Assembly (NCBI RefSeq): GCF_017348835.2
Contig: NZ_CP071375.1
DNA: 64,000 nucleotides
DNA from: Escherichia coli
GTDB lineage: Bacteria; Pseudomonadota; Gammaproteobacteria; Enterobacterales; Enterobacteriaceae
Strand: one strand, 5' to 3'
Positions 5,070 through 48,813 of the stretch are shown here, in pieces. The translations under genes were made by a program, and so were the position numbers. The number at the start of each line of letters is the position of its first letter. Position 1 is the first letter of the stretch. The notes under the pieces are model-generated. The model searched no databases. It had not been told where the DNA came from and saw only the letters and a program-made list of their open reading frames with translations.

Positions 5070-5834
5070 ATGCGTTCGATTGCCCGACGTACCGCAGTGG
5101 GAGCTGCACTATTGCTTGTTATGCCAGTAGCCGTATGGATTTCTGGCTGGCGTTGGCAACCAGGAGAACAAAGTTGGCTACTAAAAGCGGCTTTTTGGGT
5201 TACTGAAACTGTCACCCAGCCCTGGGGCGTCATTACACATTTGATTTTATTCGGCTGGTTTCTCTGGTGTCTGCGTTTTCGCATTAAGGCTGCCTTTGTA
5301 TTATTTGCCATTCTGGCGGCCGCAATCCTTGTGGGACAAGGCGTTAAATCCTGGATCAAAGACAAAGTCCAGGAACCACGACCTTTTGTTATCTGGCTGG
5401 AAAAAACACATCATATTCCAGTTGATGAGTTCTACACTTTAAAGCGAGCAGAACGCGGAAATCTAGTGAAAGAACAGTTGGCTGAAGAGAAAAATATCCC
5501 ACAATATTTGCGTTCACACTGGCAGAAAGAGACGGGGTTTGCCTTTCCTTCCGGTCACACGATGTTTGCTGCCAGTTGGGCACTGCTGGCCGTTGGTTTG
5601 CTGTGGCCGCGTCGGCGAACGTTAACCATTGCTATCTTGTTGGTCTGGGCAACTGGAGTCATGGGAAGCCGCCTGCTGCTCGGGATGCATTGGCCACGCG
5701 ATCTGGTAGTAGCTACGTTGATTTCGTGGGCGCTGGTGGCGGTGGCAACGTGGCTTGCGCAACGAATTTGTGGGCCATTAACACCACCTGCGGAAGAAAA
5801 TCGCGAGATAGCGCAACGAGAACAAGAAAGTTAA
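5070..5834 (+). CDS. pgpB: phosphatidylglycerophosphatase B (254 aa, PAP2 family)
   Basis: GGAG RBS; multi-TM PAP2 motifs (PSGH, SRLLLGMHWPRD). Confidence 0.95.
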   Translation: MRSIARRTAVGAALLLVMPVAVWISGWRWQPGEQSWLLKAAFWVTETVTQPWGVITHLILFGWFLWCLRFRIKAAFVLFAILAAAILVGQGVKSWIKDKVQEPRPFVIWLEKTHHIPVDEFYTLKRAERGNLVKEQLAEEKNIPQYLRSHWQKETGFAFPSGHTMFAASWALLAVGLLWPRRRTLTIAILLVWATGVMGSRLLLGMHWPRDLVVATLISWALVAVATWLAQRICGPLTPPAEENREIAQREQES

Positions 5835-15989: not shown

Positions 15990-16778
15990 TTATTTCAGTT
16001 CGAGTTCGTTCATTGCAGCAATGCTGAAACCGCCGTCAACGTGGACCACTTCACCGGAGATACCGGCAGAGAGATCGGAGCACAGGAATGCCGCAGAGTT
16101 ACCCACATCTTCAATAGTAACGGTACGGCGAATCGGGGTAACGGCTTCGCAATGAGCCAGCATTTTGCGGAAGTCTTTGATGCCGGAGGCCGCCAGAGTA
16201 CGGATCGGACCAGCAGAGATGGCGTTAACACGCACACCTTCCGGACCCATCGCGTTCGCCATATAGCGCACGTTCGCTTCCAGAGACGCTTTTGCCAGAC
16301 CCATAACGTTGTAGTTCGGGATAGCGCGCTCAGCGCCAAGGTAGGAAAGGGTCAGCAGGGCAGAACCCGGATTCAGCATGGAGCGGCAAGCTTTTGCCAT
16401 TGCAACGAAGCTGTAGGAGCTGATGTCGTGGGCGATTTTGAAGCCTTCACGAGTAACGGCGTTAACATAGTCACCATCCAGTTGATCGCCAGGTGCAAAA
16501 CCAATAGAGTGTACGAAACCGTCAAATTTCGGCCAAACTTTCCCCAGTTCAGCGAACATGGTGTCGATGCTGGCATCTTCGGCAACATCGCACTGCAGAA
16601 CGATGTCAGAACCCAATTGAGCGGCAAATTCTTCTACGCGGCCTTTCAGTTTGTCGTTCTGGTAGGTGAATGCCAGTTCAGCTCCTTCGCGGTGCATCGC
16701 CTGAGCGATACCGTAGGCGATGGACAGTTTGCTGGCAACACCGGTTACCAGAATGCGCTTACCGGAAAGAAAACCCAT
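15990..16778 (-). CDS. fabI: enoyl-ACP reductase (NADH) FabI (262 aa)
   Basis: SDR-type NAD-binding motif [13 protein letters not shown]; FabI sequence recognised. Confidence 0.97.
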
Positions 16779-17212
16779 AGCTTTAATCCTTATTGTTGAT
16801 GCTTGTTGTGCCTGAAAATCAGGCGATTCGTCGTTTTAGTAAACAGTACGAACAGATAAACGGTTATTATAATCAACCTGGCTGTGGGTGGCTATAGTTG
16901 CGCTTTCTGTACCGGAGAGAAGCTGCGGTACAGAGCATTTTGCGTTATCTACTCTTGACGCCTGCAAGGGGTAGGTTGGGGAAATATCTTATAGAATCTG
17001 ACTATGAAACTATTCGTATTAGCTCCGATAAGTTTGATGATGAAAACAGAACTGGCGACAACAAGTAGCTGCCTTTCTGATGAATTTACCCCAACTTAAT
17101 ATTGTCAACTATCTTCACAGAATCTCCACAATCTCTTCATTATCAGAATATGCACCATGAATAAGTTAAAAATACTTTCCATTACTTTGGAGAAACGTAT
17201 AATCAGCAAAAA

Positions 17213-17230
17213 TGAGAACGATCATTCTCA
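17213..17230. promoter_or_regulatory. perfect palindrome TGAGAA-N6-TTCTCA about 25 nt upstream of the TetR start; candidate TetR-family operator
   Basis: 6-bp perfect inverted repeat arms; TATAAT-like hexamer at 17198-17203 just upstream. Confidence 0.35.
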
Positions 17231-17255
17231 CCAAGTGATAGGCCAGGAGACAGAA

Positions 17256-17822
17256 ATGACCAGCAAGCTGGAGATACGCCACAAACAGCGTCAGGATGAA
17301 ATCATTAACGCCGCCCGTCGGTGTTTTCGTCGCTGCGGGTTTCATGCCGCCAGTATGTCGCAAATTGCCAGCGAAGCTCAGCTTAGCGTGGGTCAGATAT
17401 ATCGTTACTTCGCCAACAAAGACGCCATTATTGAAGAGATGGTTCGCCGTATCATCGACTTTCGTATTGCCCAAATGGACATTGACGCGCGTACCGATCA
17501 CTTCCCGGAAGTCCTTGCCTTGCGTAAATCCTTAAATGAGGACGACGACGCGCTGATGCTGGAAGTGGCTGCAGAAGCCACACGCAACCCGCGGGTTATG
17601 GCAATGCTTGAAGAAGCTGACGCCAGAATGTTCGCTAACGGTTGTGCACATATGAAAAGAATGCATCCCCATCTTAGCGACGAGCACATTCGTTGCTGCG
17701 TTGAAGTGTTTGCTACCATGATGGAAGGTACGGTTTATCGTCGTTTAACACCGCAAAAAAGCGATCCACAACATCTGCAGGAATTATATCAGGATATTGT
17801 TAGTATGTTGATAAATAAATAA
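17256..17822 (+). CDS. TetR/AcrR-family transcriptional regulator (188 aa from MTSK start; ORF track starts at 17157)
   Basis: N-terminal TetR HTH (SMSQIASEAQLSVGQIYRYFANKDAI); AGGAG RBS 8 nt upstream of 17256. Confidence 0.85.
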   Translation: MTSKLEIRHKQRQDEIINAARRCFRRCGFHAASMSQIASEAQLSVGQIYRYFANKDAIIEEMVRRIIDFRIAQMDIDARTDHFPEVLALRKSLNEDDDALMLEVAAEATRNPRVMAMLEEADARMFANGCAHMKRMHPHLSDEHIRCCVEVFATMMEGTVYRRLTPQKSDPQHLQELYQDIVSMLINK

Positions 17823-17842
17823 GAACAGAATTAACCAATAGC

Positions 17843-17866
17843 GGGGGATATTAATCCCCCTTATTT
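17843..17866 (+). terminator. stem-loop after TetR gene (GGGGGAT-ATTA-ATCCCCC + TTATTT)
   Basis: 7-bp GC-rich inverted repeat followed by T-rich run, 20 nt after TetR stop. Confidence 0.45.
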
Positions 17867-17923
17867 CATTGCGAAATTCATTTCGCGATGCGGGTTCGTT
17901 ATAACTGAATATCCCTGACATAT

Positions 17924-17960
17924 CCTCATTAATTTTAATGAGGAGGGTATTTCTCACCCT
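17924..17960. promoter_or_regulatory. two adjacent inverted repeats (CCTCATTAA-TT-TTAATGAGG; AGGGT-N7-ACCCT) directly upstream of the efflux operon RBS; candidate operator or promoter
   Basis: 9-bp perfect palindrome plus a second 5-bp inverted repeat within 50 nt of the MFP start. Confidence 0.35.
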
Positions 17961-17970
17961 GGAGAAAATA

Positions 17971-19092
17971 ATGAAGTATATAGCAACATCTGTAGTGGCA
18001 ATGCTGCTCTTATCTGGTTGTGATAATACGCAAAGTAACAATTCATCCCCGTCAGAAACAGAAGTCGGCGTTGTTACAGTCAAATCTCAACCGGTCTCGG
18101 TAGTCAGTGAATTAACCGGACGCACCAGTGCTGCGCTCAGTGCCGAAGTACGTCCGCAGGTTGGGGGAATTATCCAGAAACGCTTATTTAAGGAAGGTGA
18201 TCTGGTCAAGGCTGGACAGCCGCTCTACCAGATTGATGCGGCCAGTTATCAGGCTGCATGGAATGAAGCTCGGGCAGCATTACAACAAGCACAGGCACTG
18301 GTAAAAGCCGATTGCCAGAAAGCGCAGCGTTATGCCCGACTGGTGAAAGAGAACGGTGTTTCACAACAGGATGCTGATGATGCTCAGTCTACCTGTGCAC
18401 AAGATAAAGCCAGTGTAGAGGCGAAAAAAGCCGCACTGGAAACTGCGCGCATTAATCTTGACTGGACCACGGTAACCGCACCGATTTCAGGGCGCATTGG
18501 CATTTCGTCGGTAACCCCTGGCGCACTGGTGACCGCGTCGCAAGATACAGCGTTAACGACTATTCGTGGTCTGGATACAATGTATGTCGACCTCACTCGC
18601 TCCAGTGTCGATTTATTACGTCTGCGTAAACAGTCACTGGCGACCAACAGTGACACCATGAGCGTCTCACTTATTCTGGAAGATGGCACAACCTACAGCG
18701 AAAAAGGGCGTCTGGAACTCACCGAAGTCGCTGTAGATGAGTCTACCGGTTCGGTGACATTACGGGCGATTTTCCCCAATCCACAACAGCAGTTATTACC
18801 GGGAATGTTTGTTCGCGCTCGTGTCGATGAAGGCGTGATGGAAGACGCTATTCTCGCGCCGCAACAGGGCGTCACGCGCGATGCTAAAGGCAATGCAACT
18901 GCGCTGGTGGTGAATAAAGACAATAAAGTAGAGCAGCGAACGCTCGAAACGGGAGAAACATATGGTGATAAATGGCTGGTGCTAAACGGCCTGCACAACG
19001 GCGACCGACTGATTGTTGAAGGTTCTGCAAAAGTCACTTCAGGGCAGACGGTCAAGGCTGTTGAAGTTCAGGCTAATGGAGGCAACGCCTGA
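17971..19092 (+). CDS. RND efflux periplasmic adaptor (membrane fusion lipoprotein), AcrA/MexA-like (373 aa from MKYIATS start)
   Basis: lipoprotein signal with lipobox LLSGC; coiled-coil and beta-barrel MFP architecture; GGAG RBS. Confidence 0.9.
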   Translation: MKYIATSVVAMLLLSGCDNTQSNNSSPSETEVGVVTVKSQPVSVVSELTGRTSAALSAEVRPQVGGIIQKRLFKEGDLVKAGQPLYQIDAASYQAAWNEARAALQQAQALVKADCQKAQRYARLVKENGVSQQDADDAQSTCAQDKASVEAKKAALETARINLDWTTVTAPISGRIGISSVTPGALVTASQDTALTTIRGLDTMYVDLTRSSVDLLRLRKQSLATNSDTMSVSLILEDGTTYSEKGRLELTEVAVDESTGSVTLRAIFPNPQQQLLPGMFVRARVDEGVMEDAILAPQQGVTRDAKGNATALVVNKDNKVEQRTLETGETYGDKWLVLNGLHNGDRLIVEGSAKVTSGQTVKAVEVQANGGNA

Positions 19093-22000
19093 TGTTTTCG
19101 CGCTTTTTTGTTCGCCGCCCGGTCTTTGCCTGGGTTATCGCCATTTTGATTATGTTGGCGGGGATTCTGGCTATTCGCACATTGCCCGTCGCGCAATATC
19201 CTGACGTTGCGCCACCGACCATTAAAATTTCAGCCACTTATACTGGTGCTTCTGCCGAAACGCTGGAGAACAGCGTGACTCAGGTTATCGAGCAACAACT
19301 CACTGGGCTTGATAATTTACTCTATTTCAGCTCAACCAGCAGCTCTGATGGTTCGGTCAGTATTAATGTGACCTTTGAACAAGGTACCGATCCAGATACT
19401 GCACAGGTTCAGGTGCAGAATAAAATTCAGCAGGCCGAGTCGCGCCTACCCAGCGAAGTGCAGCAAACGGGTGTTACGGTGGAGAAATCACAAAGCAACT
19501 TTTTGCTGATTGCTGCCGTGTATGACACCACTGACAAAGCCTCCAGTTCGGATATCGCCGACTGGTTGGTTAGTAACGTTCAGGACCCGCTGGCGCGTGT
19601 TGAAGGTGTGGGGAGTCTGCAAGTCTTTGGCGCGGAATACGCTATGCGCATCTGGCTTGACCCGGCCAAACTGGCGTCTTATTCGCTAATGCCTTCAGAC
19701 GTGCAAAGTGCTATTGAAGCGCAAAACGTGCAGGTTACTGCCGGGAAAATAGGGGCATTGCCTTCACCGAATACTCAGCAACTGACCGCAACGGTACGTG
19801 CGCAGTCTCGCTTGCAGACGGTGGATCAGTTCAAAAATATTATCGTGAAAAGCCAGTCAGACGGCGCAGTTGTTCGTATAAAAGATGTGGCTCGTGTTGA
19901 GATGGGCAGTGAAGATTATACCGCTATCGGCAAACTTAACGGTCACCCGTCTGCCGGGGTTGCTGTAATGCTTTCGCCCGGTGCGAATGCGCTGAATACG
20001 GCGACGCTGGTCAAGGATAAGATTGCCGAATTCCAGCGGAACATGCCGCAGGGATACGACATCGCTTACCCGAAAGACAGCACTGAATTTATTAAAATCT
20101 CTGTAGAGGACGTAATTCAGACGCTGTTTGAAGCCATCGTATTGGTGGTTTGCGTGATGTATTTATTCCTGCAAAACCTGCGTGCCACACTGATTCCGGC
20201 GTTAGCTGTCCCCGTCGTTTTGCTGGGCACATTCGGCGTTCTTGCGTTGTTTGGCTATTCGATTAATACCCTGACGTTGTTTGCAATGGTGCTGGCGATC
20301 GGCTTGCTGGTGGACGATGCCATTGTGGTAGTGGAGAACGTCGAACGCATTATGCGTGACGAAGGGTTGCCCGCGCGTGAAGCCACGGAAAAATCAATGG
20401 GCGAGATTTCTGGCGCACTGGTTGCCATTGCGCTGGTGTTGTCAGCCGTATTCCTGCCTATGGCCTTCTTTGGGGGATCTACGGGGGTAATTTATCGTCA
20501 GTTTTCGATAACCATTATCTCCGCAATGCTGCTTTCCGTGGTGGTGGCATTGACCTTGACTCCCGCCCTGTGCGGTTCCGTCCTCCAGCATGTTCCGCCA
20601 CATAAAAAAGGCTTTTTCGGCGCATTTAACCGCTTTTACCGCCGTACTGAAGATAAATATCAGCGAGGCGTAATTTATGTCCTGCGCCGTGCTGCTCGAA
20701 CGATGGGGCTTTATCTCGTACTGGGTGGTGGAATGGCCCTGATGATGTGGAAACTGCCGGGCAGTTTCTTACCCACTGAAGACCAGGGCGAAATCATGGT
20801 GCAGTACACGCTGCCGGCCGGGGCGACCGCTGCCCGTACAGCAGAAGTGAATCGCCAGATTGTTGACTGGTTCCTGATTAACGAGAAAGCAAATACCGAT
20901 GTCATTTTTACCGTTGATGGTTTCAGTTTTAGCGGCAGCGGACAGAACACCGGGATGGCGTTTGTTTCGTTGAAAAACTGGTCTCAACGTAAAGGGGCAG
21001 AAAACACCGCCCAGGCTATCGCCCTACGGGCAACCAAAGAGCTGGGCACAATTCGTGATGCCACGGTATTTGCGATGACGCCGCCAGCCGTTGATGGGCT
21101 GGGGCAAAGCAATGGTTTTACGTTTGAATTGTTAGCTAACGGTGGAACCGATCGCGAAACACTACTGCAAATGCGTAATCAGTTGATAGAAAAAGCGAAT
21201 CAAAGTCCGGAGTTACATTCTGTTCGTGCCAATGATTTGCCACAAATGCCGCAATTGCAGGTAGATATTGATAGTAATAAAGCGGTGTCATTAGGGTTGA
21301 GTTTGAATGATGTCACCGACACCCTGTCCAGTGCGTGGGGCGGTACTTATGTGAATGACTTTATTGACCGTGGTCGTGTGAAAAAAGTCTACATTCAGGG
21401 CGACAGTGAATTTCGTTCCGCGCCGTCAGACTTAGGTAAATGGTTTGTGCGCGGTAGCGATAACGCCATGACACCATTCTCTGCTTTTGCGACCACCCGC
21501 TGGCTGTATGGACCGGAAAGACTGGTGCGCTACAACGGTTCTGCAGCCTATGAAATTCAGGGGGAAAATGCGACTGGCTTTAGTTCCGGCGATGCAATGA
21601 CAAAAATGGAGGAACTGGCAAACAGTCTTCCTGCGGGAACAACCTGGGCCTGGAGTGGTTTGTCATTGCAGGAGAAACTGGCCAGCGGTCAGGCATTGAG
21701 TCTGTATGCAGTTTCTATTCTGGTGGTTTTCCTCTGCCTTGCAGCACTGTACGAAAGCTGGTCAGTCCCGTTCTCGGTCATTCTGGTGATCCCTCTGGGG
21801 CTTCTTGGCGCGGCGCTGGCGGCCTGGATGCGTGATTTAAACAACGATGTTTACTTCCAGGTGGCGCTATTAACCACTATCGGCTTGTCGTCGAAAAACG
21901 CCATTCTGATTGTGGAATTTGCTGAAGCGGCGGTTGCAGAGGGCTATTCCTTGAGTCGTGCGGCATTACGCGCGGCGCAGACTCGTTTACGCCCAATCAT

Positions 22001-22199
22001 TATGACCTCGCTGGCGTTTATTGCGGGGGTAATGCCGCTGGCGATAGCAACCGGCGCAGGGGCGAACAGCCGCATCGCCATTGGTACGGGCATTATTGGC
22101 GGTACGCTGACCGCTACGTTGCTGGCTATTTTCTTTGTTCCTCTGTTTTTTGTACTGGTGAAACGTTTGTTTGCCGGTAAACCGCGCCGTCAGGAGTAA
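19092..22199 (+). CDS. RND (HAE1 family) inner-membrane multidrug efflux pump, AcrB/MexB-like (1035 aa)
   Basis: 12-TM RND architecture, characteristic N-terminus (MFSRFFVRRPVFAWVIAILIML); start overlaps MFP stop (ATGA). Confidence 0.93.
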   Translation: MFSRFFVRRPVFAWVIAILIMLAGILAIRTLPVAQYPDVAPPTIKISATYTGASAETLENSVTQVIEQQLTGLDNLLYFSSTSSSDGSVSINVTFEQGTDPDTAQVQVQNKIQQAESRLPSEVQQTGVTVEKSQSNFLLIAAVYDTTDKASSSDIADWLVSNVQDPLARVEGVGSLQVFGAEYAMRIWLDPAKLASYSLMPSDVQSAIEAQNVQVTAGKIGALPSPNTQQLTATVRAQSRLQTVDQFKNIIVKSQSDGAVVRIKDVARVEMGSEDYTAIGKLNGHPSAGVAVMLSPGANALNTATLVKDKIAEFQRNMPQGYDIAYPKDSTEFIKISVEDVIQTLFEAIVLVVCVMYLFLQNLRATLIPALAVPVVLLGTFGVLALFGYSINTLTLFAMVLAIGLLVDDAIVVVENVERIMRDEGLPAREATEKSMGEISGALVAIALVLSAVFLPMAFFGGSTGVIYRQFSITIISAMLLSVVVALTLTPALCGSVLQHVPPHKKGFFGAFNRFYRRTEDKYQRGVIYVLRRAARTMGLYLVLGGGMALMMWKLPGSFLPTEDQGEIMVQYTLPAGATAARTAEVNRQIVDWFLINEKANTDVIFTVDGFSFSGSGQNTGMAFVSLKNWSQRKGAENTAQAIALRATKELGTIRDATVFAMTPPAVDGLGQSNGFTFELLANGGTDRETLLQMRNQLIEKANQSPELHSVRANDLPQMPQLQVDIDSNKAVSLGLSLNDVTDTLSSAWGGTYVNDFIDRGRVKKVYIQGDSEFRSAPSDLGKWFVRGSDNAMTPFSAFATTRWLYGPERLVRYNGSAAYEIQGENATGFSSGDAMTKMEELANSLPAGTTWAWSGLSLQEKLASGQALSLYAVSILVVFLCLAALYESWSVPFSVILVIPLGLLGAALAAWMRDLNNDVYFQVALLTTIGLSSKNAILIVEFAEAAVAEGYSLSRAALRAAQTRLRPIIMTSLAFIAGVMPLAIATGAGANSRIAIGTGIIGGTLTATLLAIFFVPLFFVLVKRLFAGKPRRQE

Positions 22200-22202
22200 G
22201 TT

Positions 22203-23576
22203 ATGTTGCGTCGTTCTCTTATTTTTCTGGTGCTGTTGAGTGCGGGATGTGTCTCGCTCGATCCCCACTACAGCACGCCTGAATCCCCAATCCCGGCGAC
22301 CTTGCCGGGAGCACAGGGCCAGGGAAAGGCAATCAGCCATGACTGGCAGCAGGTGATCCACGATCCCCGATTGCAGCAAGTGGTGACTATTGCACTGAAC
22401 AGTAACCGCGATGTGCAAAAAGCGATTGCTGATATTGACTCAGCACGGGCGCTCTATGGGCAAACTAATGCGTCGTTATTCCCGACGGTGAATGCGGCCT
22501 TAAGTTCAACCCGCAGTCGTTCGCTGGCGAATGGTACGGAAACCACTGCCGAGGCTGACGGCACGGTGTCCAGTTTTACGTTAGATCTGTTTGGTCGTAA
22601 TCAGAGTTTATCTCGGGCGGCGCGAGAAACCTGGCTTGCCAGTGAATTTACAGCCCAGAACACCCGTTTAACGCTGATTGCTGAAATCAGCACCGCCTGG
22701 CTGACACTGGCGGCCGATAACAGCAACCTGGCCCTGGCAAAAGAAACGATGACCAGTGCAGAAAACTCATTGAAAATTATCCAGCGCCAGCAACAGGTTG
22801 GCACGGCGGCAGCGACAGATGTCAGTGAGGCGATGAGTGTTTATCAGCAAGCGCGCGCCAGCGTTGCCAGCTATCAGACACAAGTGATGCAGGATAAAAA
22901 TGCGCTGAACTTACTGGCAGGTACAACGCTTGAGGAAAATTTGCTACCGGGAACACTGGAAAGCCTGCCGGAACAGATGATAAGTCTGGTTCCTGCGGGA
23001 GTGTCATCTGACGTTCTGCTGCGTCGCCCGGATATCCAGGAAGCGGAACATAATTTGAAGAGCGCCAATGCCGATATTGGCGCGGCGCGGGCTAACTTTT
23101 TCCCGACGATTTCGCTGACTGCCAGCGCTGGTGTTGGCAGTGACGCATTGTCGTCGTTGTTCAGCCACGGAATGCAGATCTGGTCATTTACGCCATCGGT
23201 CACATTACCGCTGTTCACTGGCGGAAGTAATCTGGCGCAGCTTCGTTACGCAGAAGCACAAAAGCGTGGACTCATTGCCACCTATGAAAAAACCGTTCAG
23301 AGCGCATTTAAAGATGTCGCTAACGCACTGGCGCGGCGGACCACGCTTGAAGAGCAACTGGATGCACAGCGCCAGTATGTTAAAGCTGAGCAACAAACGG
23401 TCGATGTTGGCTTGCGTCGCTATCAGACGGGTGTTGGTGATTACCTGACCGTGTTGACGGCGCAGCGCAGCTTGTGGAGCGCACAGCAGGAGCTGCTGGC
23501 ACTGCAACTGACTGATTTTACAAACCGAATCACGCTCTGGCAGTCGCTGGGCGGCGGCATGTCATCACTCAAGTAA
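22203..23576 (+). CDS. outer-membrane efflux lipoprotein, OprM/NodT-family OMF (457 aa)
   Basis: lipobox LSAGC; OMF family repeats; 3 nt after RND stop. Confidence 0.9.
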   Translation: MLRRSLIFLVLLSAGCVSLDPHYSTPESPIPATLPGAQGQGKAISHDWQQVIHDPRLQQVVTIALNSNRDVQKAIADIDSARALYGQTNASLFPTVNAALSSTRSRSLANGTETTAEADGTVSSFTLDLFGRNQSLSRAARETWLASEFTAQNTRLTLIAEISTAWLTLAADNSNLALAKETMTSAENSLKIIQRQQQVGTAAATDVSEAMSVYQQARASVASYQTQVMQDKNALNLLAGTTLEENLLPGTLESLPEQMISLVPAGVSSDVLLRRPDIQEAEHNLKSANADIGAARANFFPTISLTASAGVGSDALSSLFSHGMQIWSFTPSVTLPLFTGGSNLAQLRYAEAQKRGLIATYEKTVQSAFKDVANALARRTTLEEQLDAQRQYVKAEQQTVDVGLRRYQTGVGDYLTVLTAQRSLWSAQQELLALQLTDFTNRITLWQSLGGGMSSLK

Positions 23577-23584
23577 GGAATAAT

Positions 23585-24748
23585 ATGGCTAGAGTCTCTC
23601 TTTCATGGGCATTGATTCTTGGTCTTTTAGCCGGTATCGGCCCGATGTGTACCGATCTTTATTTGCCGGCTTTGCCGGAGATGTCTGAGCAACTGGCGGC
23701 AACCACGACCATAACGCAATTAACGCTGACTGCATCACTGATCGGTCTTGGCGTCGGACAACTGTTATTTGGCCCTCTGAGCGACAAAATAGGGCGTAAA
23801 CGTCCGTTAATCTTGTCGTTGCTATTGTTTATTGTTTCTTCCATTTTGTGCGCGACAACGAACAATATTTACTGGCTGGTGATCTGGCGTTTTATTCAAG
23901 GGATCGCGGGGGCGGGTGGTTCGGTGCTCTCTCGTTCTATTGCTCGTGACAAATATCAGGGAGTAACGTTGACCCAGTTTTTTGCGCTGTTAATGACGGT
24001 GAATGGCCTGGCACCGGTGTTGTCGCCAGTGCTGGGCGGGTACATTGTTAGCACTTTTGACTGGCGCACTTTATTCTGGGTAATGGCTGAAATTAGCACC
24101 GTATTGTTGCTGGGCTGCGTGTTATTTATTAATGAGACCTTGCCAGAAAATAAAAGGGGCTCATCATTGCTATTAACCGGACGAAGCGTGGTGCAGAACC
24201 GCCGTTTTATGCGCTTTTGCCTGATTCAAAGTTTTATGCTGGCAGGTTTGTTTGCGTATATCGGCTCTTCGTCGTTCGTGTTGCAGAAGGAATTTGGCTT
24301 TAGTCCAATGCAATTTAGCCTGGTGTTTGGCCTTAACGGCATCGGACTTATCATTGCTTCATGGATCTTTTCGCGTCTGGCGCGACGGATTAATGCGATG
24401 ACATTGTTGCGAGGTGGCCTGATAGCGGCAATTTTGTGTGCATTGCTCACGGTCTTATGCGCATGGACACAATTGCCCATTCCGGCACTGGTGGCATTAT
24501 TTTTCACTATTGCATTTTGTAGCGGCATCGGCACTGTTGGCGGGGCAGAGGCTATGAGTGCAGTAGGGACGCAGGAATCTGGAACGGCGTCTGCGTTGAT
24601 GGGGATGAGCATGTTTGTCTTCGGCGGTATAGCCGCGCCATTGTCGGGATTTGGCGGAGAAACACTGTTAAAAATGAGTCTGGCAATTACGGTGTGTTAT
24701 ACACTGGCATTCCTGGTTGCTCTCACCAGAATCGACAATCAAAAGTAA
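23585..24748 (+). CDS. MFS transporter, Bcr/CflA drug-resistance subfamily (387 aa)
   Basis: 12-TM MFS with motif GPLSDKIGRKRP; AAGGA RBS; 8 nt after OMF stop. Confidence 0.88.
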   Translation: MARVSLSWALILGLLAGIGPMCTDLYLPALPEMSEQLAATTTITQLTLTASLIGLGVGQLLFGPLSDKIGRKRPLILSLLLFIVSSILCATTNNIYWLVIWRFIQGIAGAGGSVLSRSIARDKYQGVTLTQFFALLMTVNGLAPVLSPVLGGYIVSTFDWRTLFWVMAEISTVLLLGCVLFINETLPENKRGSSLLLTGRSVVQNRRFMRFCLIQSFMLAGLFAYIGSSSFVLQKEFGFSPMQFSLVFGLNGIGLIIASWIFSRLARRINAMTLLRGGLIAAILCALLTVLCAWTQLPIPALVALFFTIAFCSGIGTVGGAEAMSAVGTQESGTASALMGMSMFVFGGIAAPLSGFGGETLLKMSLAITVCYTLAFLVALTRIDNQK

Positions 24749-24752
24749 TGAA

Positions 24753-24789
24753 TACCTCATCCTGAGGGGGGGGCCCTGTCAGGATGAGG
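24753..24789. terminator. stem-loop between convergent MFS gene and sapF (ACCTCATCCTGA...TCAGGATGAGGT)
   Basis: 12-bp perfect inverted repeat with G-rich 13-nt loop in a 50-bp gap between two convergent stops. Confidence 0.5.
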
Positions 24790-24798
24790 TGCAGAACA

Positions 24799-25605
24799 CT
24801 AACGGTCCTTACGCCACGCATCCGCCGTCAATGCTTCGCCAAAGTGCCCGGCAATCAGCCGTTTGGTGAGTTCATGCAGCGGTGATGCCAGCACATCCGC
24901 GGTGCTGCCTCGCTCGACAACCTCGCCCTGATGCATCACCAGCACCTGGTCGCTAATGTGCTTCATCATTCCGATATGCTGGGTAACATAAATATACGAA
25001 ATGCCCTGTTTTTCCTGTAATTCCAGCATCAGATTAATCAACTGCGAACGCATCGACATATCCAGTGAAGCGAGGGCTTCATCGGCAATAATGACTTTTG
25101 GGCGCAATATCAGCGCGCGCGCCAGACCCAGACGCTGTTTTTGCCCGGGGGCCAACATATGCGGATAGTAACTGACGTGATCCGGTAGCAGCCCAACCAT
25201 ACGCATCGTTTCAATAATCTGTTTGCGACGCTGTTCCGGTTCCAGGTTGGTGTTCAGGCGCAGTGGAAAATCCAGAATTTGCGAGATACGTTGACGGGGA
25301 TTCAACGAGGTCGAAGGATCCTGAAAAATCATGCGAATACGCTGACTGCGGAAGGAATAATCGCCAAAATGCAGTGGATGATCGTCAATCAATAACTCGC
25401 CGCTGGTAGGTTCTATCATTCCCGCCAGCATTTTTGCCAGCGTGGATTTACCCGAACCATTCTCGCCGATAATCGCCAGTGTCTGGCCTTCACGTAGCGT
25501 AAAGCTCAAGGGTTTTACCGCTTCTACGGTTTGACGACGAAACCAGCCGGTCCGGTAGCGGAACGTTTTACTTAAATTACGCACTTCAAGCAGCGTTTCG
25601 ATCAT
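24799..25605 (-). CDS. sapF: peptide ABC transporter ATP-binding protein SapF (268 aa)
   Basis: Walker A GENGSGKST, ABC signature; sap operon synteny. Confidence 0.95.
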   Translation of the reverse strand: MIETLLEVRNLSKTFRYRTGWFRRQTVEAVKPLSFTLREGQTLAIIGENGSGKSTLAKMLAGMIEPTSGELLIDDHPLHFGDYSFRSQRIRMIFQDPSTSLNPRQRISQILDFPLRLNTNLEPEQRRKQIIETMRMVGLLPDHVSYYPHMLAPGQKQRLGLARALILRPKVIIADEALASLDMSMRSQLINLMLELQEKQGISYIYVTQHIGMMKHISDQVLVMHQGEVVERGSTADVLASPLHELTKRLIAGHFGEALTADAWRKDR

Positions 25606-47817: not shown

Positions 47818-48813
47818 ATGAAAAAGTTAGTAGCCACGGCACCGCGCGTAGCGGCGCTGGTTGAGTATGAAGACAGGGCGATTTTAGCCAATGAAGTGAA
47901 GATCCGCGTGCGTTTCGGCGCGCCGAAGCACGGGACGGAAGTGGTCGATTTCCGCGCCGCCAGCCCGTTTATCGATGAAGACTTTAACGGTGAATGGCAG
48001 ATGTTCACCCCGCGCCCGGCAGATGCGCCGCGCGGCATTGAGTTTGGCAAATTCCAGCTTGGCAACATGGTGGTTGGCGACATTATCGAATGCGGCAGCG
48101 CCGTTACCGATTACGCGGTGGGCGACAGCGTATGCGGCTACGGCCCGCTTTCCGAAACGGTCATCATTAACGCGGTGAATAACTACAAGCTGCGCAAAAT
48201 GCCGAAAGGCAGTTCGTGGAAAAACGCCGTCTGCTACGACCCGGCGCAGTTTGCCATGAGCGGCGTGCGCGATGCCAACGTGCGCGTAGGGGATTTTGTG
48301 GTGGTGGTAGGGCTTGGCGCGATTGGTCAAATTGCCATCCAACTGGCGAAACGCGCTGGCGCGTCTGTGGTGATTGGCGTCGATCCTATCGCCCATCGCT
48401 GTGATATTGCCCGTCGCCACGGCGCGGATTTCTGCCTTAACCCCATCGGCACTGACGTAGGGAAAGAGATCAAAACGCTGACCGGCAAGCAGGGTGCCGA
48501 TGTGATTATCGAAACCAGCGGCTACGCCGACGCGCTGCAATCGGCACTGCGCGGCCTGGCTTACGGCGGCACCATCTCCTATGTCGCGTTTGCCAAACCG
48601 TTTGCCGAAGGTTTCAACCTCGGACGCGAAGCGCATTTCAATAACGCCAAAATTGTCTTCTCCCGCGCGTGCAGCGAACCGAACCCGGATTATCCGCGCT
48701 GGAGCCGTAAGCGTATTGAAGAAACCTGCTGGGAACTGCTGATGAACGGTTATCTCAATTGTGAAGATTTAATCGACCCGGTGGTGACCTTTGCTAACAG
48801 CCCGGAAAGCTAA
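47818..48813 (+). CDS. ycjQ: zinc-dependent MDR-family dehydrogenase YcjQ (331 aa as read here)
   Basis: AAGGAG RBS; Rossmann motif VVVGLGAIGQ; I remember K-12 listing a longer product, so the start is uncertain. Confidence 0.85.
   Translation: MKKLVATAPRVAALVEYEDRAILANEVKIRVRFGAPKHGTEVVDFRAASPFIDEDFNGEWQMFTPRPADAPRGIEFGKFQLGNMVVGDIIECGSAVTDYAVGDSVCGYGPLSETVIINAVNNYKLRKMPKGSSWKNAVCYDPAQFAMSGVRDANVRVGDFVVVVGLGAIGQIAIQLAKRAGASVVIGVDPIAHRCDIARRHGADFCLNPIGTDVGKEIKTLTGKQGADVIIETSGYADALQSALRGLAYGGTISYVAFAKPFAEGFNLGREAHFNNAKIVFSRACSEPNPDYPRWSRKRIEETCWELLMNGYLNCEDLIDPVVTFANSPES

Follow-up and report, generated by a model that had tools for sequence, protein, structure and literature searches.

The five-gene efflux cluster between fabI and sapF in an Escherichia coli genome is very probably the published eefRABCD operon

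We analyzed a 64,000-nucleotide stretch of Escherichia coli DNA (contig NZ_CP071375.1, assembly GCF_017348835.2; hereafter the window) in which one regulator gene and four transporter genes are bracketed, in the list of open reading frames, by fabI (15990–16778, minus strand) and sapF (24799–25605, minus strand). These five genes are very probably the chromosomal eefRABCD operon of E. coli, which has been published by Pugh et al. (bioRxiv 2024; Microb Genom 2026; PMC12817139) and by Shen et al. (Virulence 2025; PMC12482432); eef genes were first noted in E. coli in 2008, in strain SMS-3-5. A preliminary description of the window, made from its letters alone, had implied that the cluster was novel and had held that near-identity to an operon already characterized at this locus would count against it. 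The observation of the cluster was correct but not new, because the operon was named and tested in papers of 2024–2026.

The arrangement of the genes is the one that was reported. Pugh et al. found the five-gene operon at the fabI–sapF locus in E. coli phylogroups B2, D, E, F and G, and also in Escherichia albertii and Escherichia marmotae (PMC12817139). In the window, the genes follow one another in the order R-A-B-C-D on one strand, they occupy the fabI–sapF locus and they replace ycjD, all as published. The 188-residue EefR carries V45 and R50 in its DNA-binding helix, and EefB has the proton-relay residues D408, D409, K935 and T972 at the published numbering. The cited residues of EefC (D206, G412, L415, T416, L418 and T419) and of EefA (R120, R123, L124, V125, S131, D134, D136 and Q221) are likewise present at their published positions. 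Because the locus, the gene order, an exact copy of the operator, the EefR residues and every cited residue of EefA, EefB and EefC coincide, the comparison argues strongly for identity with the published operon. At the nucleotide level, the operon of the window shares 99.5–99.8% identity with O157:H7 copies and 98.2% with a sequence type 131 (ST131) copy, and Pugh et al. give 97.5–99.6% identity to the ATCC 25922 operon for the ST131 and O157:H7 lineages (PMC12817139).

The five genes lie exactly where they had first been placed (Table 1), as judged from the open reading frames and from the RefSeq starts; the start codons chosen initially are those annotated by RefSeq in E. coli strain PE164 (pig), to which the window is 100% identical, and in O157:H7 strain TR01. 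Internal stop codons are absent from all five translations, and the genes are intact and of full length, without frameshifts. Open reading frames of these lengths with the profile scores given below cannot have arisen by chance. The eefA and eefB genes overlap by 1 nt (TGATG), eefB and eefC are separated by 3 nt, eefC and eefD by 8 nt, and eefR and eefA by a longer spacer of 148 nt.

Table 1. Coordinates of the eef genes and of predicted regulatory and boundary features in the window.
Feature	Position	Strand	Remarks
eefR, TetR/AcrR-family regulator (autorepressor)	17256–17822	+	188 aa; reading frame also open from 17157
eefA, RND periplasmic adaptor lipoprotein	17971–19092	+	373 aa; reading frame also open from 17938
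eefB, RND (HAE-1) inner-membrane permease	19092–22199	+	1035 aa
eefC, NodT/OprM-type outer-membrane factor lipoprotein	22203–23576	+	457 aa
eefD, Bcr/CflA-type (DHA1) MFS exporter	23585–24748	+	387 aa
eefR promoter-like site	17176–17203	+	-35 TTTCCA, 16-nt spacer, -10 TATAAT; consensus scan, 10/12 matches
EefR operator, 18-bp palindrome	17213–17230	+	TGAGAACGATCATTCTCA; exact match to published site, just 3' of the -10 box
H1, GC-rich hairpin followed by U-rich tract	17843–17866	+	GGGGGAUAUUAAUCCCCC; terminator scan; directly after the eefR stop
H2 hairpin	17867–17890	+	CAUUGCGAAA-uuca-UUUCGCGAUG; RNAalifold, 9 pairs, 6 with compensatory changes
H3 hairpin	17923–17944	+	UCCUCAUUA-auuu-UAAUGAGGA; upstream of the conserved UUCACCCUGGAGAAAA ribosome-binding region of eefA
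Operator-like sequence	17939–17956	+	TGAGGAGGGTATTTCTCA; one mismatch from the operator pattern; directly 5' of eefA, overlaps the 3' arm of H3
eef-specific segment, ~7.85 kb	16929–24776	+	K-12 has ~570 bp instead (ycjD and repeat-like sequence)
11-bp inverted repeat	24755–24789		CCTCATCCTGA...TCAGGATGAGG; between convergent eefD and sapF; right breakpoint

The protein families assigned at first sight (TetR, AcrA-like, AcrB/MexB-type, OprM/NodT-type and Bcr/CflA-type) were borne out by family models, by lipobox motifs and, for EefR, by the RefSeq product name. When NCBIfam profile models were scored against their curated cut-offs, EefB passed the RND permease model TIGR00915 (1552.9, cut-off 940), EefA the adaptor model TIGR01730 (275.6, cut-off 94.9), EefC the NodT outer-membrane factor model TIGR01845 (371.3, cut-off 210) and EefD the Bcr/CflA model TIGR00710 (278.8, cut-off 200.9); the TcaB equivalog model was not reached by EefD (314 against 475). 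The models for named pumps were missed by wide margins: EefB scored 1380.5 against 2150 for AcrB and 1409 against 1854 for AcrD, and EefA scored 389.7 against 765 for AcrA and 402.1 against 750 for MexA. Scores so far below the equivalog cut-offs indicate that the eef proteins are paralogues rather than orthologues of these components. Lipoprotein signal motifs are present in EefA (LLSGC) and EefC (LSAGC). Among solved structures, EefB aligns over its full length with AcrB and MexB, its closest relatives, EefA is closest to AcrA and MexA, and EefD has EmrD and MdfA as its nearest, distant relatives. The closest solved relative of EefC is OprM (E=2e-101), which, together with the NodT match, upholds the proposal that the system has its own dedicated outer-membrane channel. 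On these similarities, EefABC is classified as an HAE-1 RND tripartite pump. For EefR, the solved structure that comes closest is UidR, a glucuronide-responsive repressor; the similarity is weak and mostly confined to the DNA-binding half, so it does not identify the ligand of EefR.

Repression, the operator and co-transcription have been established in experiments by others, who worked, on these points as on efflux, with strains ATCC 35218 and ATCC 25922 (PMC12482432, PMC12817139). Shen et al. mapped the operator TGAGAACGATCATTCTCA by electrophoretic mobility shift assay (EMSA) and point mutation and found that EefR represses its own promoter, that a 316-bp fragment from upstream of eefR drives green fluorescent protein, that mutations of V45 or R50 derepress the operon, and that loss of eefR raises the eefA–eefD transcripts 27- to 83-fold (PMC12482432). 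They also found all five eef genes to be co-transcribed (PMC12482432); the single operon that had been proposed for the four transporter genes is therefore real, but its transcript takes in eefR as well. In the window, the copy of the operator listed in Table 1 is the sole exact match in the 64 kb. The pattern TGAGAA-N6-TTCTCA stands upstream of the eef operon in 27 fetched loci, and an alignment of eefR upstream regions shows that both promoter hexamers are kept across many genera. We considered the operator-like sequence directly 5' of eefA as a second EefR site and rejected it. Its right half-site is unconserved in other Escherichia species, and the 148-bp eefR–eefA spacer, which Shen et al. 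used as a non-specific competitor, did not bind EefR in EMSA (PMC12482432). This sequence is probably fortuitous and non-functional.

These observations suggest a mechanism in which a dimer of the TetR-family protein EefR would sit on the palindrome just 3' of the -10 box in the eefR promoter, and in which repression would be lifted by mutation of eefR or, presumably, by the binding of a ligand to EefR. On derepression, the EefA adaptor, the proton-driven EefB pump and the OprM-like EefC channel would assemble into a tripartite pump that expels amphiphilic compounds over both membranes, with EefD exporting over the inner membrane. Strains that lack acrB would then become more resistant to sanguinarine, erythromycin, clindamycin, fusidic acid, chloramphenicol, tetracycline, dequalinium and ethidium. 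The substrates, too, come from published experiments. Expression of eefABC and eefD in an acrB-null host raised the minimum inhibitory concentrations (MICs) of sanguinarine, erythromycin, chloramphenicol, tetracycline, clindamycin and fusidic acid (Shen et al., PMC12482432), and efflux of ethidium was demonstrated by Pugh et al. 2026 (PMC12817139).

Several points weigh against reading the cluster as the published, EefR-controlled drug efflux operon. The RefSeq records of PE164 and O157:H7 TR01 use generic product names only and not the eef names, so annotation alone would hide the fact that the operon is already known. Likeness to the ATCC 25922 and ATCC 35218 operons was judged indirectly, through the ST131 and O157:H7 copies, and we know of no inducer for EefR or the eef operon. 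In the hands of Pugh et al., neither deletion nor plasmid expression altered antibiotic MICs, and they suggest that eef is not a drug transporter (PMC12817139). Finally, pBReefAB alone gave similar resistance (PMC12482432), which weakens the case for EefC, as opposed to TolC, as the partner of EefAB. Differences in expression level plausibly explain much of the disagreement between the two studies. Pugh et al. cloned eefABC as an NdeI–XhoI fragment in pET21a/24a and used MG1655 without isopropyl β-D-1-thiogalactopyranoside and without the native leader (PMC12817139), and we infer that expression from this construct was low. The construct of Shen et al. used the tet promoter of pBR322, and the native sequence upstream of eefA was essential (PMC12482432).

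The alternative that survives best is that the real job of eef is physiological or host-related, such as the export of host-derived or endogenous compounds, tolerance of acid or bile, or gut colonization, and that drug efflux is a side activity seen under artificial overexpression. We regard this as a serious possibility, although one that falls somewhat short of an even chance. Deletion of eefB, eefABC or eefD in ATCC 25922 changed neither antibiotic nor metal MICs, and eef matches acrAB-tolC in its degree of conservation across phylogroups B2, D, E, F and G (PMC12817139). A Klebsiella pneumoniae eefA mutant, cited in the eef literature, showed poorer gut colonization and poorer tolerance of low pH. 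The strong purifying selection described below also implies a benefit, although drug phenotypes are masked by AcrAB. Against this stand the clear multidrug phenotypes produced by loss of eefR in an acrB-null strain and the lack of an identified physiological substrate or inducer. A physiological role would be compatible with EefR-controlled efflux by EefABC and EefD, not exclusive of it.

The spacer between eefR and eefA, whose native sequence matters for the constructs just described, contains three predicted hairpins (Table 1). The first, H1, looks like an intrinsic terminator or attenuator placed after eefR, and 19 sequences from seven or more genera have a hairpin with a T-run in that position, although their stem sequences differ. 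H2 and H3, like H1, recur at the same positions in other genera while the sequences of their stems differ. For H2, 99.4% of cells were paired on a plain MAFFT alignment as compared with 37–56% in slid controls, the covariation score was 0.572 as compared with 0.205 in shuffles (0/500), and 23 of 26 sequences have a U.G wobble that is compatible with the sense strand only.

A covariance model of H2 and H3 (R1), built only from Enterobacter, Lelliottia, Leclercia and metagenome-assembled genome sequences, found exactly one significant match (E<=0.001) in each of 27 sources, always on the sense strand and directly 5' of eefA. The sources matched include the window (17867–17976; 47.4 bits, E=9e-8), other Escherichia species, Klebsiella, Raoultella, Kluyvera, Cedecea and Dryocola. 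In the alignment based on R1, which is fitted to the model and so favours the structure, 94.7% of H2 and H3 cells were paired, and 15 of 19 pairs had changed on both sides (at least eight genera); for H3 taken separately, these figures were 94.6% and seven of nine pairs. The covariation score of this alignment was 0.474 as compared with 0.222 in shuffles (0/500), and slid controls paired in 42–52% of cells. A search of Rfam with 16700–18100 gave no match at E values up to 1, and term searches of the two eef papers found no mention of a terminator or RNA hairpin, a broader literature search being swamped by unrelated papers.

We also considered H2 and H3 as EefR operators. Because their stems keep U.G wobbles that fit only a sense-strand RNA, and because the spacer was not bound by EefR in the EMSA experiments, they are better read as RNA features than as operators. 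We tentatively suggest that the eefR–eefA spacer may be a conserved cis-regulatory RNA that sets or switches the output of eefABCD independently of EefR, an idea that we hold to be possible but, on balance, rather doubtful. Such an RNA would act by attenuation, by processing and 5' stabilization, or by gating of translation; a reasonable hypothesis is that attenuation at H1 goes together with one of the other effects, exerted by H2 and H3. If so, this additional layer of control could explain why the pump is cryptic and account in part for the conflict between the results of Pugh et al. and Shen et al., and it would fit the need for the native eefA upstream sequence in the multi-gene constructs of Shen et al.

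To place the operon in a wider context, one genome per species was scanned with EefC, which returned 38 loci. In Kluyvera, Enterobacter, Lelliottia, Leclercia, Klebsiella, Raoultella, Cedecea and Dryocola, EefB is 85–89% and EefA 74–81% identical at the amino acid level to the proteins of the window. In none of the non-Escherichia loci does fabI or sapF lie near eef, which indicates that the fabI–sapF position is specific to Escherichia. A different site is common to Klebsiella, Raoultella, Enterobacter, Lelliottia and Kluyvera, with genes for a GNAT protein, a TetR regulator and a DHA2 MFS transporter upstream and a LacI-type regulator and a cellobiose-type phosphotransferase system downstream; in loci that have eefD, murQ and murP come directly after it and precede these downstream genes. 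The cluster had been likened to eefRABC with an extra MFS gene. The name and the orthology were well chosen, but eefD is likewise found behind eefC in Klebsiella, Raoultella, Kluyvera cryocrescens and Enterobacter soli, and it is missing from most Enterobacter. The full R-A-B-C-D layout is found in K. cryocrescens, E. soli and one metagenome-assembled genome, so the MFS gene is not an addition made in E. coli. The Klebsiella and Raoultella loci that we examined have lost the eefR coding sequence but keep the promoter, the exact operator pattern and the H1–H3 leader (for example, at locus positions 5500–5775 of K. pneumoniae ATCC 13883), and the operator thus appears there as an orphan with no local repressor. 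This is consistent with the report, known to us via the eef literature, that eefABC of Klebsiella aerogenes lacks eefR and is silenced by H-NS.

Within Escherichia, the operon is widespread and its history can be read from its neighbours. At least 80% of the interval is carried by 2,037 of 5,426 complete E. coli genomes (37.5%). The same five genes occupy the fabI–sapF site in E. albertii, Escherichia whittamii, Escherichia sp. MOD1-EC7003 and the divergent 'E. coli' SCPM-O-B-8794. Between the window and E. albertii, nucleotide identity is 88–91% for eef and 87–93% for the flanking rnb, fabI and sapFDC, and synonymous divergence is 0.21–0.65 for the eef genes and 0.22–0.72 for the flanks. An identical site in these lineages and a divergence in step with that of the flanks point to vertical inheritance of eef at fabI–sapF since before the split of E. 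coli and E. albertii. The ratio of nonsynonymous to synonymous divergence (dN/dS) is 0.03–0.095 for the eef genes, indicative of strong purifying selection within Escherichia. The suggestion that eef is an ancestral locus lost in some lineages is accordingly supported within Escherichia, by synteny in four other lineages and by synonymous divergence like that of the flanks.

These data make it very unlikely that the cluster is a recently acquired genomic island moved horizontally, for example on plasmids. Lateral transfer was raised by Pugh et al. because the proteins resemble MexAB-OprM (PMC12817139), five plasmid-borne eef copies were reported by Shen et al. (PMC12482432), and Klebsiella, Enterobacter and Kluyvera do not share the fabI–sapF position. 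However, five Escherichia lineages have eef inserted at one and the same site, with a divergence that matches the flanks, and any relocation must therefore predate the split of E. coli and E. albertii. Nor does the window bear marks of mobility: the annotation of the 64 kb contains no integrase, transposase or insertion sequence (IS), and the base composition is native, with a GC content of 0.47–0.54 within the cluster as compared with 0.48–0.56 in the flanks, with the promoter region alone falling to 0.43–0.46. Annotation and GC profile thus confirm what had been noted at the outset about missing mobility genes and native composition.

The plasmid copies were followed up in PLSDB, where three E. 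coli records (NZ_CP134663.1, NZ_CP141085.1 and CP054253.1) are matched over the entire query, with fabI and sapF also present and the order that of the chromosome. These records are 4.9 Mb, 385 kb and 252 kb in size and are predicted to be non-mobilizable. We do not take them as plasmid carriage of eef, because they are huge and non-mobilizable and keep sapF and the essential gene fabI; they are probably mislabelled or misassembled pieces of chromosome. Their chromosomal appearance weakens the published claim of plasmid-borne eef.

That the cluster is a decaying, silent remnant heading for loss, as in Shigella dysenteriae, is the least probable alternative and can be set aside: the five reading frames are intact and of full length with the low dN/dS given above, the promoter, operator and leader are conserved, and the cloned genes are functional, even though eef is cryptic under laboratory conditions, has been lost in many lineages and is disrupted by IS elements in S. 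dysenteriae (Pugh et al., PMC12817139). A further point in favour of decay is O157:H7 strain 9234 (NZ_CP017446.1), where the match is split in two and an IS3-family IS1203 transposase is annotated inside it; in one O157:H7 strain at the least, an IS has thus inserted into the operon or beside it.

The K-12 allele is of a different kind. As stated in the preliminary description, K-12 has ycjD alone between fabI and sapF, and fabI, ycjD and sapF were found at the site in 24 of 25 sampled operon-less genomes, a sample spread across the ranking. When the fabI–sapF intervals were compared by blastn, similarity between K-12 and the window ended at window position 16928 and restarted at 24777/24792. 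A search of the K-12 interval for eef remnants (blastn, word size 7) returned only the flanks and chance matches (E>=2), and an internal deletion that left eef fragments behind in K-12 is therefore ruled out. The eef and ycjD segments are therefore alternatives between the same breakpoints, and the K-12 state is a replacement rather than a simple deletion: a segment with ycjD has taken the place of eef in the lineages that K-12 represents. The K-12 segment (positions 1938–2507 of the K-12 locus) also has a repeat-like CCCTC...GAGGG on the fabI side of ycjD. The 11-bp inverted repeat at the right breakpoint is likely a terminator shared by eefD and sapF. K-12 has this repeat as well, beside ycjD; its arms there show a paired, compensatory T>C / A>G difference, and its loop is different.

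Other parts of the window have a different relationship to known genomes. The flanks of the operon are 98–99.5% identical to O157:H7 and K-12 alike in a sliding comparison, which makes them uninformative as to phylogroup. The region from sapD to ycjS (window 26000–50000) is matched at 99% identity or more in only two of the 5,426 complete E. coli genomes, and the best sampled records after the identical PE164 are ~97.6% identical. Its puuC–puuB and ycjM–ycjR parts are 96–97% identical to both K-12 and O157:H7. This region is a rare haplotype in a polymorphic part of the chromosome, unlike the eef operon, which is 99.8–99.9% identical to that of O157:H7. Within it, ycjQ (window 47818–48813) is 996 nt long as annotated in PE164 as compared with 1053 nt in O157:H7 TR01 and K-12, which suggests that its 3' end has been shortened in the lineage of PE164 and the window.

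As a discovery, the cluster adds little, because the operon, its repressor and operator, its distribution and its first substrates have all been published. It keeps its medical relevance as a cryptic seventh RND pump, carried by pathogenic E. coli lineages and able to bring back multidrug resistance once AcrB is lost or inhibited. What the present analysis adds is the Escherichia-specific position with vertical descent, the replacement by ycjD, the doubts about the 'plasmid' copies, the orphan operator in Klebsiella and the conserved structured leader upstream of eefA. These additions could sharpen follow-up work, and they leave the verdict on novelty unchanged.

Compared with the published E. 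coli eefRABCD, the cluster in the window has the same locus, gene order, protein lengths and operator, the same EefR residues that resistance mutations alter and the same cited residues of EefA, EefB and EefC, and we find no difference of substance; its allele is closest to that of O157:H7 (99.8%). The EefABC systems of K. aerogenes, K. pneumoniae and the Enterobacter cloacae complex are orthologous, with 71–79% amino acid identity in EefC, and they have in common with it the promoter, the operator of EefR and, ahead of eefA, the two-hairpin leader. With MexAB-OprM and AcrAB-TolC, the eef system shares the tripartite HAE-1 architecture and the proton relay, and EefB is ~57% identical to both AcrB and MexB (Pugh et al., PMC12817139). 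Like the MexAB-OprM operon, the eef operon encodes a dedicated lipoprotein channel. It differs from AcrAB-TolC and MexAB-OprM in that its repressor is EefR rather than AcrR or MexR and in that it adds an MFS gene.

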